DNA of 5,913 nt, taken from IMG/VR virus record IMGVR_UViG_2563366843_000008. One strand, 5' to 3'. A program made the translations under genes and the position numbers. The stretch's first letter is position 1; every line of letters starts with the position of its first letter. Under the pieces are notes generated by a model, which saw nothing but the letters and a program-made list of their open reading frames with translations, had not been told where the DNA came from and made no database searches. Shown here in pieces: positions 1 through 5,913 of this stretch. This stretch comes from a virus (lineage: Duplodnaviria; Heunggongvirae; Uroviricota; Caudoviricetes).

Positions 1-1005
1 GTCGGTCGGGCGAGCGATGATGCGGAAGGTTACCTGGATTTTTTCAAAGGCAAGATAACCGAATCCCATCTCGGCAAGGAGCTGCTGGAAAAAGTCGAGC
101 TGACGGAGGATAACGCCAGCAGACTGGAGGAGTTTTCGAAAGAGTGGAAGGACGCCAACGATAAATGGAATGCCATGTGGGGCGTCAAAATTGAGCAGAC
201 CAAAGACGGCAAACATTATGTCGCGGGGCTTGGCCTCAGCATGGAGGATACGGAGGAAGGCAAACTGAGCCAGTTCCTGGTTGCCGCTAACCGTATCGCG
301 TTTATTGACCCGGCAAACGGGAATGAAACGCCGATGTTTGTGGCGCAGGGCAACCAGATATTCATGAACGAAGTGTTCCTGAAGTATCTGACGGCTCCCA
401 CCATTACCAGCGGCGGTAATCCCCCGGCATTTTCCCTGACACCGGACGGGCGGCTGACGGCGAGAAATGCTGATATCAGCGGTAACGTGAATGCGAACTC
501 CGGGACGCTCAATAATGTCACGGTAAATGAAAACTGTACGATTAAGGGCATGCTGGAGGCGAACCAGGTCAGAGGTGACTTCGTTAAAACTGTATCCAAA
601 TCATTCCCGAAAAAGGCTGGTACGTGGGGTAACACGGAAACACCAAACGGGACGGTTACAGTCACCATTTACGATGATCATAACTTTGACCGCCAAATCA
701 TTATTCCGCCCATTATTTTTAACGGTGTGGCGTATGACGATCCGGGGAGCGGTAATAACCCGGGAGGTACGCGATACACGGGTTATGGTTTTGAAGTTCG
801 CAAAAATGGCGTATTAATCGCATCCAGAGAAACTAAAGGAGCCATTCCCGGTAGTTACAGTGCGGTTATTGATATGCCGAGTGGTGGTGGTAACGTCACT
901 CTGGAGTTTAAGATTTTCCAGAAAGGCAATCAGGGCGCAGGTAACATCACAGACTGTACGGTGATTGTGACCAAAAAAGCTGCTTCCGGTATCAGTATCC
1001 GTTGA
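1..1005 (+). CDS. J: Host specificity protein J-like central tail fibre, C-terminal portion (5'-partial; reading frame open from base 1)
   Basis: Frame 1 is open from position 1 to the TGA at 1003-1005. The translation (…[120 protein letters not shown]…) matches what I recall of the C-terminal third of phage lambda J. The last ~140 residues (from about [14 protein letters not shown]) no longer look like my recollection of lambda J. The ORF-track start at 175 is an internal Met. Confidence 0.88.
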
Positions 1006-1025
1006 AATATTTATAACCCCAATAC

Positions 1026-1050
1026 GGGCGCCAGAAATGGCGCCTTTTTT
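1026..1050 (+). terminator. Rho-independent terminator-like hairpin between J and stf
   Basis: Perfect palindromic stem GGCGCC (1027-1032) / GGCGCC (1039-1044) with loop AGAAAT, followed directly by a T6 run (1045-1050). Confidence 0.55.
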
Positions 1051-1065
1051 ATTTGTGGAGTAAGT

Positions 1066-3249
1066 ATGGCAGTACAGATTTCAGGTGTGCTGAAAGATGG
1101 TGCGGGAAAACCAATACAGAACTGCACTATTCAACTGAAGGCAAAGCGTAACAGCACCACGGTACTGGTGAACACGGTGGCCTCTGAAAATCCGGATGAA
1201 GCCGGGCGTTACAGCATGGATGTTGAGTATGGCCAGTACAGCGTTATCCTGCTTGTTGAAGGTTTTCCGCCTTCACATGCCGGAACCATTACCGTCTATG
1301 AAGGTTCCAGACCAGGTACGCTGAATGATTTTCTCGGTGCCATGACGGAAGATGATGTCATGCCGGAGGCATTGCGTCGTTTTGAGGAAATGGTGGAAGA
1401 AGCGGCACGCAACGCTGAAGCCGCCTCTCAGAGCGCAGCGGCGGCAAAGAAATCCGAAACTGCAGCGGCATCATCGAAGAACGCGGCGAAAACCTCAGAA
1501 ACGAATGCAGCTAACAGCGCACAGGCGGCAGCGGCCTTGCAGACTGCATCGGCAAACTCCGCAACAGCAGCTAAAAAATCAGAAACCAACGCGAAAAATA
1601 GCGAGACAGCCGCAAAGACGAGCGAAACCAACGCAAAGTCCAGCCAGACGGCAGCGAAGACCAGCGAAACGAATGCCAAAGCCAGTGAAACTGCGGCGAA
1701 AAGCAGTCAGGATGCAGCGGCTCAAAGCGAGAGTGCCGCAGCCAGTTCTGCAAGCGCGGCGGCTGCTTCTGCCACTGCATCAGCTAACAGTCAAAAAGCA
1801 GCAAAAACCAGTGAAACCAACGCAAAGGTGAGCGAAACAGCGGCTGCGAACTCAGCGAAAGCATCGGCAGCAAGCCAGACGGCAGCTAAAGCAAGCGAAG
1901 ATGCAGCCAGAGAGTACGCAAGCCAGGCTGCGGAGCCGTATAAATATGTCTTACAGCCGCTGCCTGATGTGTGGATACCATTTAACGATTCGCTGGATAT
2001 GATTACGGGCTTTTCGCCGTCATATAAAAAAATTGTTATTGGTGACGATGAAATAACGATGCCTGGCGACAAGATTGTTAAGTTTAAACGTGCATCGAAA
2101 GCAACCTATATTAACAAATCTGGTGTGCTGACAGAGGCTGCCATTGACGAGCCACGATTTGAACGTGATGGCCTGCTTATTGAGGGGCAAAGAACAAACT
2201 ACATGCTCAATTCGGAAAACCCTGCCAGTTGGGGGCGATCGTCAAATATGGATGTTCCCGAAACCGGGACGGATAGTTTTGGTTTTACCTATGGAAAGTT
2301 TGTCTGTAACGATTCTCTGATTGGGCAAACCTCAGCCATTAATATGGCATCAATTGCTGCAACAAAGTCAGTTGATGTCTCAGGCGATAATAAATACGTG
2401 ACAACCTCATGTCGTTTTAAAACAGAACTGCAGGTAAGGTTGCGTATCCGGTTTGATAAATATGACGGTAGCGCAACAACTTTTCTTGGTGATGCGTATA
2501 TTGATACACAAACGCTTGAAATTACTATGACAGGCGGTGCTGCCTCAAGGATTACTGCGAGAGTCAGAAAGGACGAAGCTACCGGATGGATTTTTGCAGA
2601 GGCAACAATTCAGGCAATTGATGGGGAGTTAAAAATAGGTTCTCAGATACAGTATTCTCCTAAGCAGGGCGGGGCAACCGTATCTGGTGACTATATTTAT
2701 CTGGCCACCCCACAAGTAGAAAATGGGCCTTGTGTATCATCTTTTATTATATCAGGAACGACGGCGGCGACCCGCGCAAGCGATATAGTTACAGTTCCCA
2801 TTAAGAATAATCTTTATAATCTTCCTTTTACGGTTCTTTGTGAGGTACATAAGAACTGGTATAAAACGCCAAATGCAGCGCCGCGTGTTTTTGACACCGG
2901 CGGTCATCAAACCGGAGCGGCTATTATTCTTGGCTTCGGTCGTTCAACAGATTACGACGGATTTCCTTATTGCGATATTGGAGGAGCTAACAGACGGGTA
3001 AACGAAAACGCATCGCTTGAAAAAATGGTTATGGGGATGCGTGTAAAGTCAGAGCAGTCTACGTGCTCAGTAAGTAACGGGCATATATCCAGCGAAACAA
3101 AAACCACATGGTCCTGTATTCAGAACACCGCAATTATCCGTATTGGAGGCCAGACTACAGCCGGGTTACGTCATTTATTTGGTCATGTCAGGAATTTCAG
3201 AATATGGCACAAGGCATTGACTGATGCTCAGGTGGGGGAGTCAATCTAA
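1066..3249 (+). CDS. stf: Side tail fibre protein: lambda Stf-like N-terminal domain, phage tail-fibre repeats, and a C-terminal concanavalin A-like/LamG-type lectin domain
   Basis: ATG at 1066 follows GGAG at 1056-1059. The N-terminus (MAVQISGVLKDGAGKPIQNCTIQLKAKRNSTTVLVNTVASENPDEAGRYSMDVEYGQYSVILLVEGFPPSHAGTITVYEGSRPGTLNDFLGAMTEDD) closely resembles the lambda Stf N-terminus as I recall it. Residues ~125-275 are low-complexity A/S/T/K/E repeats (…AAKTSETNAKSSQTAAKTSETNAKASET…). The C-terminal ~430 aa are non-lambda and end in …GLRHLFGHVRNFRIWHKALTDAQVGESI, which fits the terminal strand motif of Laminin-G_3/concanavalin A-like domains (G-x-[IV]-x-x-[FV]-R-I-[WY]-x-[KR]-A-L-[ST]-x-x-[EQ]-[IV]). 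Confidence 0.88.
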   Translation: MAVQISGVLKDGAGKPIQNCTIQLKAKRNSTTVLVNTVASENPDEAGRYSMDVEYGQYSVILLVEGFPPSHAGTITVYEGSRPGTLNDFLGAMTEDDVMPEALRRFEEMVEEAARNAEAASQSAAAAKKSETAAASSKNAAKTSETNAANSAQAAAALQTASANSATAAKKSETNAKNSETAAKTSETNAKSSQTAAKTSETNAKASETAAKSSQDAAAQSESAAASSASAAAASATASANSQKAAKTSETNAKVSETAAANSAKASAASQTAAKASEDAAREYASQAAEPYKYVLQPLPDVWIPFNDSLDMITGFSPSYKKIVIGDDEITMPGDKIVKFKRASKATYINKSGVLTEAAIDEPRFERDGLLIEGQRTNYMLNSENPASWGRSSNMDVPETGTDSFGFTYGKFVCNDSLIGQTSAINMASIAATKSVDVSGDNKYVTTSCRFKTELQVRLRIRFDKYDGSATTFLGDAYIDTQTLEITMTGGAASRITARVRKDEATGWIFAEATIQAIDGELKIGSQIQYSPKQGGATVSGDYIYLATPQVENGPCVSSFIISGTTAATRASDIVTVPIKNNLYNLPFTVLCEVHKNWYKTPNAAPRVFDTGGHQTGAAIILGFGRSTDYDGFPYCDIGGANRRVNENASLEKMVMGMRVKSEQSTCSVSNGHISSETKTTWSCIQNTAIIRIGGQTTAGLRHLFGHVRNFRIWHKALTDAQVGESI
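1438..1890 (+). repeat. Degenerate tandem ~42-bp coding repeats (phage tail-fibre repeat region) inside stf
   Basis: Recurring 14-aa units such as AAKTSETNAKSSQT / AAKTSETNAKASET / AAKSSQDAAAQSES correspond to a ~42-nt DNA periodicity. This low-complexity stretch also produces the spurious overlapping ORFs on both strands (1352-1831 +, 1428-1679 -, 1571-1780 -, 1791-2072 -). Confidence 0.7.
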
Positions 3250-3530
3250 TGAAAGATTTAACACTCAAATTTGAAGACAGGGCCGACTTTTCGGCCTTTA
3301 TGGATAGCACTGGCTATTATGATGACGAGTCGATGCAGGATGATATTCTTATTGACGTGATAGGTAACGTGTACAAAGAAACCGGAGAACTGACTGAAGA
3401 TGGCGAACCGGTATGTGTTAAGGAAGACGGATATTTTGTAAGCGTGCGCATCATTAATGATTCGCAAATATCGTCATTATTCGATGAATACGTGGTTGCT
3501 GTTGAGCATCAACTTCGTGGCTGGATGTGA
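3249..3530 (+). CDS. Small acidic hypothetical protein (93 aa), translationally coupled to stf; candidate fibre assembly chaperone or adaptor
   Basis: Its ATG (3249-3251) shares a base with the stf stop TAA (3247-3249), giving a TAATG overlap. A purine-rich SD-like GGGGGAG lies a few nt upstream. The product is strongly acidic (many D/E: MKDLTLKFEDRADFSAFMDSTGYYDDESMQDDILIDVIGNVYKETGELTEDGEPV…). I could not recognise a family by eye. Confidence 0.65.
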   Translation: MKDLTLKFEDRADFSAFMDSTGYYDDESMQDDILIDVIGNVYKETGELTEDGEPVCVKEDGYFVSVRIINDSQISSLFDEYVVAVEHQLRGWM

Positions 3531-3539
3531 GGAAGAAAA

Positions 3540-4580
3540 ATGGCTACATCGACAGTAATTCCTGATGACATCAAAACGCTAAAATCCGACGTTAGCAAAT
3601 TAAAAAACGATCAAGGAAGCTACGCAACAAAATTATATGTAGACAGCAAAGATGAAATCGTTGGTGACTGGTCTGCTTCATGGTATCAGCAGGTATTGCC
3701 AACTAGCGGAGCTATATTTGGGAGAAAACTCCGCTCAACTCACAGGACGGCAGGTGTTGAGGATGCGTATTGCGAACTATACCTCAAAAAATGGATAGAC
3801 AGTCCAGGTAACGCAATGGCGCGCCTTAACCTGAACGATAACGGGACAAACATTTGCTGGGACTTTACCAACCTTTATGGCGGTACGATGATTTTTCCCG
3901 GTGACAGCGGATACCTCAAAATGGGTAACTGCCTTATGTCATACAGCAAGCGTGGAAGTAACGCGCTTATTAAATTTGATTACACCGACACATTACAGAT
4001 CAAATATGCCAATCATGGGTCAACCATGACATTAAACACACAGGGAACCGCTTATGCTGGTGTTACTGCTCAATTGTGGGGCAACACCAGCCGTCCTGTT
4101 GTTTATGAAGTCGGTGTTGATGGTGGCGCTTATATGTTCTATGCGCAGAAAAATACCGATAACACCTATATGTTAAGCGTTAATGGTGCATGTCATGCCA
4201 CCGCATTTAACCAGCATTCCGACCGGGATCTGAAAGACAACATTCAGGTGATCGATAATGCAACCGACCGCATCCGTAAAATGAACGGCTATACATACAC
4301 GCTTAAAGAAAACGGTATGCCCTATGCTGGTGTCATTGCACAGGAAGCTCTGGAAGCAATCCCAGAAGTTGTAGGTTCCGCAATGAAATATCAGGACGGT
4401 GCAAGCGGATCGGAAGGTGAAGAAGGTGAACGTTATTACACAGTAGATTATTCTGGTGTTACTGGCTTGCTTGTTCAGGTAGCCAGAGAGTCAGACGACA
4501 GAATAACAGCACTGGAAGAAGAAAACGCAGAATTAAGACAAAGATTATCTGCAATTGAGGCGGCGCTTGCGTCTAAATAA
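3540..4580 (+). CDS. Tail fibre/tailspike-like protein (346 aa) with C-terminal intramolecular chaperone auto-processing domain (peptidase S74-like)
   Basis: SD GAGGA (3529-3533) sits 6 nt before the ATG at 3540. The C-terminal region contains …ACHATAFNQH-S227-DRDL-K232-DNIQVIDNATDRIRKMNGYTYTL…GVIAQEALEAIPEVV… and ends in a heptad-like helix (RITALEEENAELRQRLSAIEAALASK). The S-x4-K spacing, with Ser codon TCC at 4218-4220 and Lys codon AAA at 4233-4235, matches the catalytic Ser/Lys dyad of endosialidase-type intramolecular chaperone domains (K1F endoNF, T5 pb1). The stop codon is TAA at 4578-4580. Confidence 0.8.
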   Translation: MATSTVIPDDIKTLKSDVSKLKNDQGSYATKLYVDSKDEIVGDWSASWYQQVLPTSGAIFGRKLRSTHRTAGVEDAYCELYLKKWIDSPGNAMARLNLNDNGTNICWDFTNLYGGTMIFPGDSGYLKMGNCLMSYSKRGSNALIKFDYTDTLQIKYANHGSTMTLNTQGTAYAGVTAQLWGNTSRPVVYEVGVDGGAYMFYAQKNTDNTYMLSVNGACHATAFNQHSDRDLKDNIQVIDNATDRIRKMNGYTYTLKENGMPYAGVIAQEALEAIPEVVGSAMKYQDGASGSEGEEGERYYTVDYSGVTGLLVQVARESDDRITALEEENAELRQRLSAIEAALASK

Positions 4581-4586
4581 TATTAA

Positions 4587-4609
4587 GGGGCCGAGCGCCC
4601 CGTTTTATT
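4587..4609 (+). terminator. Rho-independent terminator closing the stf-orf93-orf346 unit
   Basis: GC stem GGGGC (4587-4591) / GCCCC (4597-4601) with loop CGAGC, then GTTTTATT; it begins 7 nt after the orf346 stop. Confidence 0.65.
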
Positions 4610-4622
4610 GGGTAGGATGAAA

Positions 4623-4916
4623 ATGGATATAACACCTTTCCTTCATGCGCTTTGTGCTGTGGCTGCGCAGGTACTGGTTGGTCTTTTTACCGGGAACTGG
4701 GCTTACGGAGCGATAGCCGGTTGTACGTTCTTCATTGCGCGTGAACACACCCAGGCAGAATATCGCTGGATTGAAATGTTCGGGCATGGCAAGCGTATGA
4801 ATATGCCGTGGTGGGGTGGTTTTGATCCGCGCGTGTGGGATATGGCAAGCCTGGTGGATTTTGCTGTGCCGGTGGTGGCGTGTCTGCTGATCTGGCTGTT
4901 GGTTAATCACGGGTGA
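4623..4916 (+). CDS. Small hydrophobic protein (~97 aa), predicted inner-membrane protein with 2-3 transmembrane segments; function unknown
   Basis: The ORF is open from 4608 (TTG) to the TGA at 4914-4916. In-frame ATGs lie at 4617 and 4623, and AGGA at 4614-4617 gives a 5-nt spacer to the ATG at 4623. Hydrophobic stretches FLHALCAVAAQVLVGLFTG, AYGAIAGCTFFIA and LVDFAVPVVACLLIWLLV are separated by a charged/aromatic loop (REHTQAEYRWIEMFGHGKRMNMPWWGGFDPRVWD). The exact start is uncertain. Confidence 0.55.
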   Translation: MDITPFLHALCAVAAQVLVGLFTGNWAYGAIAGCTFFIAREHTQAEYRWIEMFGHGKRMNMPWWGGFDPRVWDMASLVDFAVPVVACLLIWLLVNHG

Positions 4917-5072
4917 AAAAGGTGAGCTGTAAATGTCGGAGGAAGAACCATCATTGTTGGCGTGGAAGAAGTATTTGTGTTGTTGAATCATGGTCAGCGG
5001 GAGATGAAGGAAGAACTGAATAACTTGGAGGATTTGAAGTCGATACGAATGTTAAGTATTGAATAATGAATA

Positions 5073-5094
5073 AACCGCGATGAGCGGTTTTTTT
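5073..5094 (+). terminator. Rho-independent terminator (+ strand)
   Basis: Stem AACCGC (5073-5078) / GCGGTT (5084-5089), loop GATGA, followed by a T7 run (through 5094). Confidence 0.6.
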
Positions 5095-5108
5095 GTACCT
5101 GAAAAATG

Positions 5109-5138
5109 AAAGCCCGGCTGCGTCAACAGTCGGGCTTT
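5109..5138. terminator. Bidirectional intrinsic terminator-like hairpin
   Basis: A 12-bp stem AAAGCCCGGCTG (5109-5120) / CAGTCGGGCTTT (5127-5138, with one G-U pair) and loop CGTCAA. It is flanked by an A-run upstream and a T-run downstream, so either strand reads hairpin plus U-tract. It could terminate the convergent minus-strand gene and any + strand read-through. Confidence 0.5.
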
Positions 5139-5349
5139 TAGCTTTTGATAATTGCGAGTTCTAATATGGAGGTCTTCCGTGTTCAATTTTAGCGGAGGAG
5201 ACTGGATAGTGAAAGCCCTAAAATTACTGGCAAGAAGCCGAAGATTACGCCAGATTTATTATTCCACATTAGTTGCTGCGCTGATATATGCCCTGATACG
5301 TTCCCCCCGTATTGGTTGAGTTGGTAAAACTATACGGGAATTAATAAAA

Positions 5350-5913
5350 TCAGAGTCGCATCAATCGTTCCACCAGTTGTTCTTTACGGGCAACGATCCA
5401 GCCGTGTTGCTCCAGATAAAATTTAAACCGCTCCAGAGTGCATACCATCGCATCGGCGGGGACTTTTTCCGTGAACTCGACCTGACCGTGTTTATCGAAG
5501 TGGATCAGTAATGTGCATCCATTATTTTCGTTGAGGGAGTTTTGTGCTGCTGGTGGTTGTTTTTGGCTGAAATAACAGTCTTCGAGTTTTTCGAACACTT
5601 CCCACGCCTGATCGGTTTCGAGCATTTTTGCGTGGCGAGCTGCCCCGCGTTCTGTCCATAGGATGAGGGAGCGGGCTTTGGGAGATATGGGGTTTTGTGA
5701 CTTACTTAAAGTAAGTCGCAAATTTTTTAATTCTTCACCCGATGCTTTAAAAAAGTGCTTTCCTTCGACAAAACGCTCTTTGTTTCTGGTGAAGTTAACC
5801 TGGATATTCTGAATTTCGGTGCCATAAAGCTGCGCCAAAAGTTCAGTGGTAATAACAGGAATCTGGTTATGGGTGATCGGGGAGAGAGTTTCAACAGAGA
5901 TTTGAGTGGCCAT
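5350..5913 (-). CDS. ORF6N-domain (KilAC/antirepressor-like) DNA-binding protein; start lies at the window edge and may be 5'-truncated
   Basis: The minus-strand ORF ends at a TGA (reverse complement of 5350-5352). The N-terminal ~100 aa (…IPVITTELLAQLYGTEIQNIQVNFTRNKERFVEGKHFFKASGEELKNLRLT…ARSLILWTERGAARHAKMLETDQAWEVFEKL…) follow the ORF6N pattern as I recall it (LA-LYG-E…RN-ERF-E…F…EEL … TE-G-A…L…A--V). The C-terminal ~80 aa are unrecognised. The Met codon is the reverse complement of the last three bases of the window. Confidence 0.7.
   Translation of the reverse strand: MATQISVETLSPITHNQIPVITTELLAQLYGTEIQNIQVNFTRNKERFVEGKHFFKASGEELKNLRLTLSKSQNPISPKARSLILWTERGAARHAKMLETDQAWEVFEKLEDCYFSQKQPPAAQNSLNENNGCTLLIHFDKHGQVEFTEKVPADAMVCTLERFKFYLEQHGWIVARKEQLVERLMRL

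Follow-up and report, generated by a model that had tools for sequence, protein, structure and literature searches.

Multi-protein tail fibres are represented by those of the T5-like phages DT57C and DT571/2, in which adjacent genes encode the branched LtfA/LtfB fibre and an S74-type domain provides self-chaperoning. LtfAB and LtfC are mentioned in a paper that also describes the side tail fibre Stf of Ur-lambda as a succession of collar, linker, proximal coiled coil, hinge and distal part (PMC12617516). The exchange of tail-fibre ends has been known since the early 1990s (Haggard-Ljungquist 1992; Sandmeier 1992, 1994; as cited in PMC3945230). De Paepe et al. (2014) reported no recent mosaics between temperate and virulent coliphages (PMC3945230), and such temperate-virulent transfers were found in later surveys (PMC8136500). 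Here, we examined a 5,913-nucleotide (nt) stretch of DNA, hereafter the window, from a tailed phage of the class Caudoviricetes (IMG/VR record IMGVR_UViG_2563366843_000008). Its open reading frames (ORFs) and Pfam matches identified it as the J–stf end of a lambdoid Escherichia coli prophage, and its closest relatives were phage Tritos, phage HannyBb and a prophage of E. coli LF82 (98.2-98.4% identity over 1-4987). The gene stf (1066-3249, plus strand) encodes a fibre protein of 727 amino acids (aa) with a phage_tail_N domain at aa 1-131, and it is followed on the same strand by orf93 (3249-3530) and by orf346 (3540-4580), whose product carries a Peptidase_S74 domain at aa 227-278. An initial annotation of this stretch had noticed a compositional break inside stf at around 1900 and had proposed that everything distal to it was acquired as a unit, by recombination in the fibre repeats. 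We propose instead that the region from 1954 to ~4509 is very probably a portable receptor-binding cassette, which is bounded by two conserved boxes and sits on a lambdoid-specific fibre base.

The left end of this cassette was located by local BLAST of the whole window against 13 loci. The virulent Nonagvirus ESCO3 matched contiguously from 1954 to 4516 at 94.8% identity with both flanks unaligned, and the match to a second Nonagvirus, JenP1, likewise began at 1954 and ended at 4516. The Seuratvirus VogelGryff matched over 1954-3272, while the matches to the T5-like phage HMD-P4 and to tunus (Drexlerviridae) started at 1952 and 1912, respectively. Position 1954 corresponds to codon 297 of stf. 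Alignment of the loci showed family-specific, unalignable sequence upstream of 1953 and, from 1953 onwards, a box that is kept in every allele and encodes QPLPDVWIPFNDSLDMITGFSPSYKK. This left junction box (1954..2040, plus strand), at which the cross-family homology starts, is conserved in all alleles and encodes (Q)PLPDVWIPFNDSLDMITGFSPSYKK, the conserved box carried by the junction itself being QPLPDVWIPFNDSL. VogelGryff is nearly identical to the window across it.

When the last 431 aa of Stf were used as query in a protein search, 2465 relatives were returned, and the box was found to sit at the junction in all 16 of 16 proteins with different N-termini. The distal part is 69-98% identical on N-termini of lambdoid, Queuovirinae, Drexlerviridae, T5-like and PF12571/PF03406 myovirus type. 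More specifically, four proteins from E. coli genomes (P0046, P0047, P0103 and P0112) carry a 92-95% identical distal part joined at the QPLPDVW box to PF12571/PF03406 N-termini, and these P2/Mu-type myovirus N-termini have no Ala repeats ahead of the box. As this distal module also meets repeat-free N-termini at that very box, the junction is the box and not the repeat array. The recombination that had been placed in the repeats must therefore be relocated for exchanges between families, whose crossover point is the box that follows them; the repeats appear to recombine too, as discussed below. By analogy with Ur-lambda Stf, the junction at aa 297 would coincide with the end of the proximal coiled coil and would make a sensible graft point.

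At the opposite end, alignment of six loci revealed an invariant box followed by two family-specific tails. This right junction box lies within orf346 (4440..4508, plus strand; …GLLVQVARESDDRIT), is nearly invariant across families and contains about 29-45 nt of exact identity between them. Past 4508, lambdoid phages and Queuovirinae have different orf346 3′ ends as well as different downstream sequence, and the cross-family right edge therefore falls at ~4509, inside orf346. A second breakpoint had been anticipated near the terminator-like hairpin GGGGCCGAGCGCCCC and its T-run (4587..4609, plus strand; hairpin at 4587-4601), which was recovered by a terminator scan. Such a breakpoint was found only in comparison with ev207 and 4C10, two lambdoids without orf346 in which homology resumes at 4614, just past the hairpin; the edge shared across families is the one at ~4509. 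Outside the boxes at 1954-2040 and 4440-4508, each phage family carries its own sequence. Between them, close alleles are common to lambdoid prophages, Nonagvirus, Seuratvirus, Drexlerviridae, T5-like phages and fibres of PF12571/PF03406 type.

According to the model that we favour, the cassette would consist of the last 431 aa of Stf together with orf93 and all but the final ~24 codons of orf346, and the fibre base beneath it would be formed by the collar domain and the Ala-rich coiled-coil shaft. Exchange would proceed by homologous or homeologous recombination within the boxes, in co-infected cells or in lysogens infected by a virulent phage. PMC3945230 deals with relaxed homologous recombination by Rad52-like phage recombinases, and PMC2327257 with lambda Red recombination between diverged sequences. 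The cassette would set the primary, probably glycan, receptor specificity: the lectin-like beta-sandwich predicted in Stf would bind the receptor, orf93 would serve as a constant partner or assembly factor and orf346 would supply a self-chaperoned accessory fibre or tip.

Several observations weigh against this model. The left box is more degenerate than the right one between some pairs: exact identity between the window and ESCO3 extends there over no more than ~14 nt, so this pair may not have recombined at that place directly. As proteins, the fibres of Queuovirinae show homology to Stf from end to end, and the sharp boundary seen in the DNA could partly reflect unequal divergence rates and not a crossover. 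The dinucleotide distance delta* of the cassette to the Tritos left arm, to the Tritos right half and to ESCO3 was within or near the self-variation of 2.56-kb pieces and gave no donor signal. Lastly, the AlphaFold2 (AF2) model of Stf was of low confidence outside one domain, and the AF2 monomer of orf346, built from a 24-sequence alignment, reached a mean predicted local distance difference test (pLDDT) score of 53.8 and a predicted template modelling (pTM) score of 0.27, which was too low for the model to be used.

A bolder proposal, which we put forward as possible and with less conviction than the cassette itself, is that the two boxes are standing ‘linkers’ through which cassettes have moved very recently between lambdoid prophages of gut E. 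coli and the virulent, deazaguanine-DNA Queuovirinae. The sharing appears to be recent because nucleotide identity to ESCO3 reaches 93-100% per 100-nt bin over ~1.9 kb. If the linker proposal were true, the cassette would be linked through these boxes to Drexlerviridae, T5-like phages and myoviruses as well, and prophages would constitute a reservoir of host-range alleles for virulent phages of the therapeutic type, and vice versa. Such traffic would stand in contrast to the 2014 findings of De Paepe et al. (PMC3945230).

The interior of the cassette was examined through identity profiles to its relatives in 100-nt bins. ESCO3 was found to be 84% identical over 2001-2100, 93-100% identical per bin over 2101-4000, 75-90% identical over 4001-4400 and 97% identical over 4401-4500. 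VogelGryff reached 99% over 2001-2200 and 60-91% beyond, tunus 98-100% over 2201-2500 and PhiR46_1 92-100% over 3301-4000. The lambdoids ev207 and 4C10 could be followed at 67-94% identity to 2888 and gave no match beyond 2888, while PhiR11_1 and PhiR47_1 matched from 3519, with an orf346 that is 83-85% identical overall and an unrelated Stf distal part. As the interior is this patchy, further crossovers must have occurred within the cassette. In 4C10, as in 4A7, 1W and 3W, stf is interrupted past the equivalent of window position 2888 by three genes annotated as ‘mobile element protein’ (4C10: L005 6247-8663).

A homologue of orf93 (32-96% aa identity) directly follows the fibre gene in 9 of 9 other loci, and orf93 can be regarded as a putative small conserved partner gene behind every fibre gene of the Stf-distal type. 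orf346 is missing from ev207 and 4C10, in both of which a homologue of orf102 comes directly after that of orf93, and it thus behaves as an independent, optional module. The small ORF orf102 (4608-4916, plus strand; phrog_1443, no Pfam family, 52.8% G+C) shows 91-100% identity to all the lambdoids compared and belongs to the lambdoid backbone and not to the cassette. Overall, the claim that the region was acquired as a unit is an oversimplification in view of the patchy identity, an uneven codon adaptation index (CAI) and the absence of orf346 from some similar loci. The cassette instead comprises at least two sub-modules, namely the Stf distal part with orf93, and orf346, and has undergone further internal crossovers.

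The compositional break first noticed by eye does fall on a mosaic junction. The G+C profile of 1-4600 is not flat, and its single best change-point, as determined by maximum likelihood, was found at 1938 (51.9% G+C to the left, 44.1% to the right), 16 nt from the start of cross-family homology. The log-likelihood ratio (LLR) at 1938 was 13.7, against a maximum of 8.8 among 200 codon shuffles. The stretches given as examples of the contrast were also borne out, with 60% G+C at 1381-1440, 41.7% at 2041-2100 and 40.0% at 3249-3660. The description of the sequence as GC-rich up to ~1900 and AT-rich thereafter holds for the step at 1938 but not for 601-1200, which is already at 44-48% G+C. Neither are GC-ending codons the main cause, as had been suggested: in the repeats, G+C at second codon positions (GC2) is 0.65-0.72 and G+C at third codon positions (GC3) merely 0.40-0.57. 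The high G+C of 1300-1950 is instead due to second codon positions, through Ala, Ser and Thr codons (36% Ala).

The amino-acid share of the step was obtained by comparing the G+C of each segment with the value that its amino acids would give if synonymous codons were used uniformly. From 55.0% in the repeats to 44.4% in the distal part, the change of -10.6 points was made up of -7.6 points from amino acids and about -2.9 from synonymous choice. About 70% of the G+C step in stf is thus amino-acid composition. As a decisive control, G+C was found to fall from repeat to distal part also in the homologous fibre genes that virulent phages carry in their native genomes of 43-45% G+C, namely those of ESCO3 (51.3% to 43.9%), JenP1 (53.4% to 39.6%), VogelGryff (50.3% to 40.9%) and tunus (52.0% to 41.7%). 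Since the same step is present in the fibre genes of the virulent phages themselves, it is largely intrinsic to protein architecture and consists for the greater part in the succession of an Ala-rich coiled-coil shaft and a beta-rich distal domain. The step at ~1940 and the left junction coincide because they reflect one and the same protein domain boundary. A G+C break read by eye can therefore hit a true mosaic junction for the wrong reason, that is, through a domain boundary and not through donor composition.

Synonymous positions gave a different picture. The dominant GC3 break was located at ~571, inside J (0.674 to 0.427; LLR of 20.4, reached by 0 of 300 shuffles). Across the stf junction the difference in GC3 was modest, 0.49 vs 0.39 (Fisher p=0.008), and an unguided search for a GC3 change-point on the codons after 572 returned position 2020 with p about 0.10. 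CAI ratios, observed over expected from random synonymous choice, were 1.4-1.7 for J and the stf 5′ part, 1.06 for the Stf distal part and orf93 and 1.42 for orf346, figures that were computed with Sharp-Li E. coli weights and are indicative only.

The explanation that comes closest to the initial annotation, and which we consider doubtful though it deserves attention before the others, is that a donor of lower G+C contributed ~1900-4600 in a single event, through recombination in the Ala-rich repeats, so that the drop in G+C is the signature of the donor. In its favour, the cassette (44.2% G+C, GC3 of 0.39-0.42) resembles the ESCO3 genome (43.5% G+C, with a GC3 of 0.40 in its own repeats). 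Its G+C lies inside the range of ESCO3 (39.3-47.3%) and outside that of 2.56-kb pieces of the Tritos structural arm (51.7-59.1%), and its GC3 likewise falls outside the lambdoid structural arm's range. In ESCO3 there is no GC3 step at the junction (0.40, 0.38), whereas GC3 goes from 0.49 to 0.385 in the window, a hint that the cassette alleles have equilibrated to phages of lower G+C. The uninterrupted 2.56-kb match to ESCO3, the fall in lambdoid identity at ~1700, inside the repeats, and the polymorphic repeat copy number can be counted on the same side. However, the composition of the cassette fits the lambdoid's own non-structural half (43.7%; range in Tritos 35.5-49.7%) equally well, and composition is altogether weak evidence for acquisition because the step is mostly amino-acid driven and is present in the genes of the putative donors. 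The cross-family junctions, moreover, lie after the repeats, at the box, and are found at that place in repeat-less fibres too. A single event is also at odds with the patchy interior, with CAI ratios of 1.06 (Stf distal part, orf93) vs 1.42 (orf346) and with a right edge that lies at ~4509 or at 4614 depending on the comparison.

Alternatively, tail-fibre segments could have been exchanged by a Pin/Gin/Cin-type site-specific invertase, as proposed by Sandmeier, in place of homologous recombination. De Paepe et al. ascribe ancient stf exchange to invertases (PMC3945230), and in Tritos and LF82 the region just downstream contains a pin recombinase gene as well as a tfa relic. We nevertheless judge this route unlikely, and clearly more so than a one-event acquisition: pin is found only in Tritos and LF82, past the point at which the window diverges from them (4987), the ORFs of the window include no invertase gene, although no dedicated search for crossover sites was made, and the virulent phages that carry the cassette have no invertase at the locus. 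The junctions are, in addition, conserved coding boxes in all alleles, which suits a homology-driven crossover. The lambda-type tfa relic is present in the window as a decayed and frameshifted 3′ end (4935..4990, plus strand), recognised by DNA alignment with LF82 and ev207. Its LF82 counterpart is annotated as ‘tail fiber assembly protein, missing N-terminus’ and its translation resembles the C-terminus of lambda Tfa, while tblastn with lambda Tfa against the window gave zero matches. The relic would show that a lambda-type stf-tfa arrangement was once present in the lineage, and the presence behind it of a pin-family invertase gene in LF82 and Tritos suggests an older fibre end that may have been invertible or Tfa-dependent.

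Vertical descent without transfer, in which the shaft stays conserved while the receptor-binding end evolves fast and diversifies, can draw on the rapid evolution of receptor-binding domains, on the end-to-end alignment of Queuovirinae and lambdoid fibre proteins and on a G+C step intrinsic to fibre architecture, but it was rejected as extremely improbable, since it predicts the opposite of what is seen, namely lambdoid and Nonagvirus distal parts at 93-100% identity (2101-4000) with proximal parts too diverged for DNA alignment, and since the same distal module occurs on unrelated N-termini.

Returning to the portable cassette, the predicted properties of its proteins can be summarised as follows. 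The distal part of Stf (1954..3249, plus strand; aa 297-727; 44.4% G+C) is a putative receptor-binding region. Within it, aa 371-571 (nt 2176-2778) matched the NCBIfam model GTA_spike_fiber (E=1.1e-13, 52 bits against a cut-off of 36). AF2 modelling of this part, from which the C-terminal 170 residues were left out, was confident for fragment residues 82-262 alone, which form a beta-sandwich. Foldseek searches of the beta-sandwich against the PDB returned weak matches to Pa193/E217 tail-baseplate/fibre entries and to the carbohydrate-binding modules CBM4 and CBM6, with E values of 6e-5 to 1e-3 and template modelling scores of 0.22-0.50, and the PDB sequence search of Stf matched at the N-terminal collar alone. 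orf93 belongs to phrog_1361 and has no Pfam family. orf346 encodes a predicted short tail-fibre protein, whose C-terminal S74 intramolecular chaperone domain (PF13884; aa 227-278, nt 4218-4373) scored above the gathering threshold with E=4.8e-14. The residues S227-D-R-D-L-K232, which comprise the Ser-Lys motif of the putative self-cleavage site, are nearly invariant in sequence among 24 homologues. Against the PDB, orf346 gave a weak match in its S74 region (6f45, E=0.0014). It belongs to phrog_4563 and, over its C-terminal two-thirds, matches the ends of long fibre proteins; it probably acts as an accessory fibre or tip that chaperones itself. The equivalent gene in the BASEL phages is labelled ‘putative lateral tail fiber chaperone’.

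The base on which the cassette is placed starts with the N-terminal collar/anchor of Stf (1066..1458, plus strand; aa 1-131; PF08400 phage_tail_N, E=1.6e-67), of which aa 1-94 match the tail fiber protein of PDB entry 9e7m (E=1.4e-49). This collar domain is specific to the lambdoid backbone. It is followed by the Ala/Ser/Thr-rich repeats of the predicted coiled-coil shaft (1441..1953, plus strand), which are arranged as 21/42-nt tandem repeats with 55% G+C and a GC2 of 0.65. Relative to Tritos and LF82, the array lacks 189 nt (63 aa), as judged from a match offset within 1597-1860, and database homologues with near-identical distal parts range in length from 665 to 742 aa. Repeat copy number, and with it the presumed shaft length, thus seems to be polymorphic. 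In several lambdoids, identity falls from 95-100% to about 75% at ~1700, inside the array, and the shaft repeats would accordingly recombine as well as the box.

A similar replacement can be discerned in the adjoining J gene, whose 3′ end (1..1005, plus strand) encodes the tail-tip protein with Pfam domains Phage_Tail_Tip and Ig_GpJ_C. The matches to other phages stop inside this end, at 561 for lambda, 608 for PhiR46_1 and PhiR47_1 and 614 for 4C10, and the GC3 break at ~571 (0.67 to 0.43) coincides with these match ends. The J C-terminal receptor-binding module (561-1005) looks to have been swapped. Tritos, ev207 and PhiR11_1 possess the same J C-terminal allele as the window at 92-100% identity.

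stf lies directly 3′ of J (J end 1005, stf start 1066), and the same layout is found in Tritos, LF82 and ev207. The gap at 1005-1066 is devoid of lom, a gene that lambda, PhiR46_1 and PhiR47_1 have at this place; homology to these three phages picks up again at 1049, after the missing lom. The corresponding prophage is also present, within the identity range given above for 1-4987, in 40-odd further complete E. coli genomes. Past 4987, the window parts from all the Tritos-like prophages and contains two strong terminator-like hairpins (5072-5090, bidirectional, and 5107-5140), followed by an ORF6N anti-repressor-like gene (5350-5913, minus strand) with 97.7% identity to genes of other E. coli prophages. 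This exact combination was found in no complete E. coli genome of the collection, and an Rfam search of the whole window returned zero matches. Records labelled as Campylobacter phage (such as C13, about 100 kb) or as Listeria phage, MG065692.1 among them, also match the distal part of the E. coli fibre, C13 at ~79% nucleotide identity, and may be mislabelled or contaminant coliphage genomes.

With regard to significance, the result is chiefly a worked example, and the one aspect that we find mildly notable is how recent the sharing between temperate and virulent phages appears, at 93-100% identity per bin over ~1.9 kb. ESCO3 is a virulent Nonagvirus from a cocktail directed against avian pathogenic E. 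coli (APEC), and its near-identity to a prophage cassette suggests that host-range determinants cross lifestyles among the phages of gut E. coli. For host-range engineering, fibre tips of this type could probably be swapped at the boxes found at Stf aa 297 and in the S74-domain gene. The current understanding of tail-fibre modularity is left unchanged.

Comparison with the described systems places the locus as follows. With Ur-lambda Stf/Tfa, the window shares the PF08400 collar (83% nucleotide identity over 1049-1415), the coiled-coil shaft and the position after J. It differs in that the lambda tip is gp37-like and OmpC-binding, whereas the distal part in the window is unrelated: local BLAST to lambda gave no stf match beyond 1415, and no gp37-like tip with a Tfa chaperone was identified. 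The window also has no functional tfa (the 3′ relic only) and no lom, and carries orf93 and the S74 protein instead. The LtfA/LtfB fibre of DT57C and DT571/2 resembles the present one as a multi-protein fibre encoded by adjacent genes and involving an S74-type domain, although Stf of the window has no S74 domain of its own.

The mosaicism described for tail fibres of P2, Mu, P1, lambda and T4 offers a parallel, in that unrelated phages trade their receptor-binding ends at conserved motifs, and the module of the window is also found on P2/Mu-type fibre N-termini. The classical cases differ in having tips of the gp37/Tfa type, which are often invertible, while the window combines a GTA-spike-fibre-like beta-sandwich with an S74 partner. 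The closest likeness in gene content is to the lateral fibre loci of BASEL siphoviruses (Queuovirinae, Drexlerviridae and T5-like Markadamsvirinae), which likewise consist of a fibre gene for ~660-780 aa, a gene for ~92 aa and an S74 gene that is annotated either as the putative chaperone named above or as ‘tail fiber’, with the exception of tunus, where the third gene is a 245-aa ORF. The junction box is the same in these loci, and nucleotide identity reaches 95-100% in segments. What sets the window apart from them is that its cassette is borne by a temperate lambdoid backbone, recognisable from the lambda-type collar, the lambdoid 3′ tail of orf346, the terminator and orf102. Taken as a whole, the tail-fibre tip mosaicism of the window is of an already known and well-documented kind.

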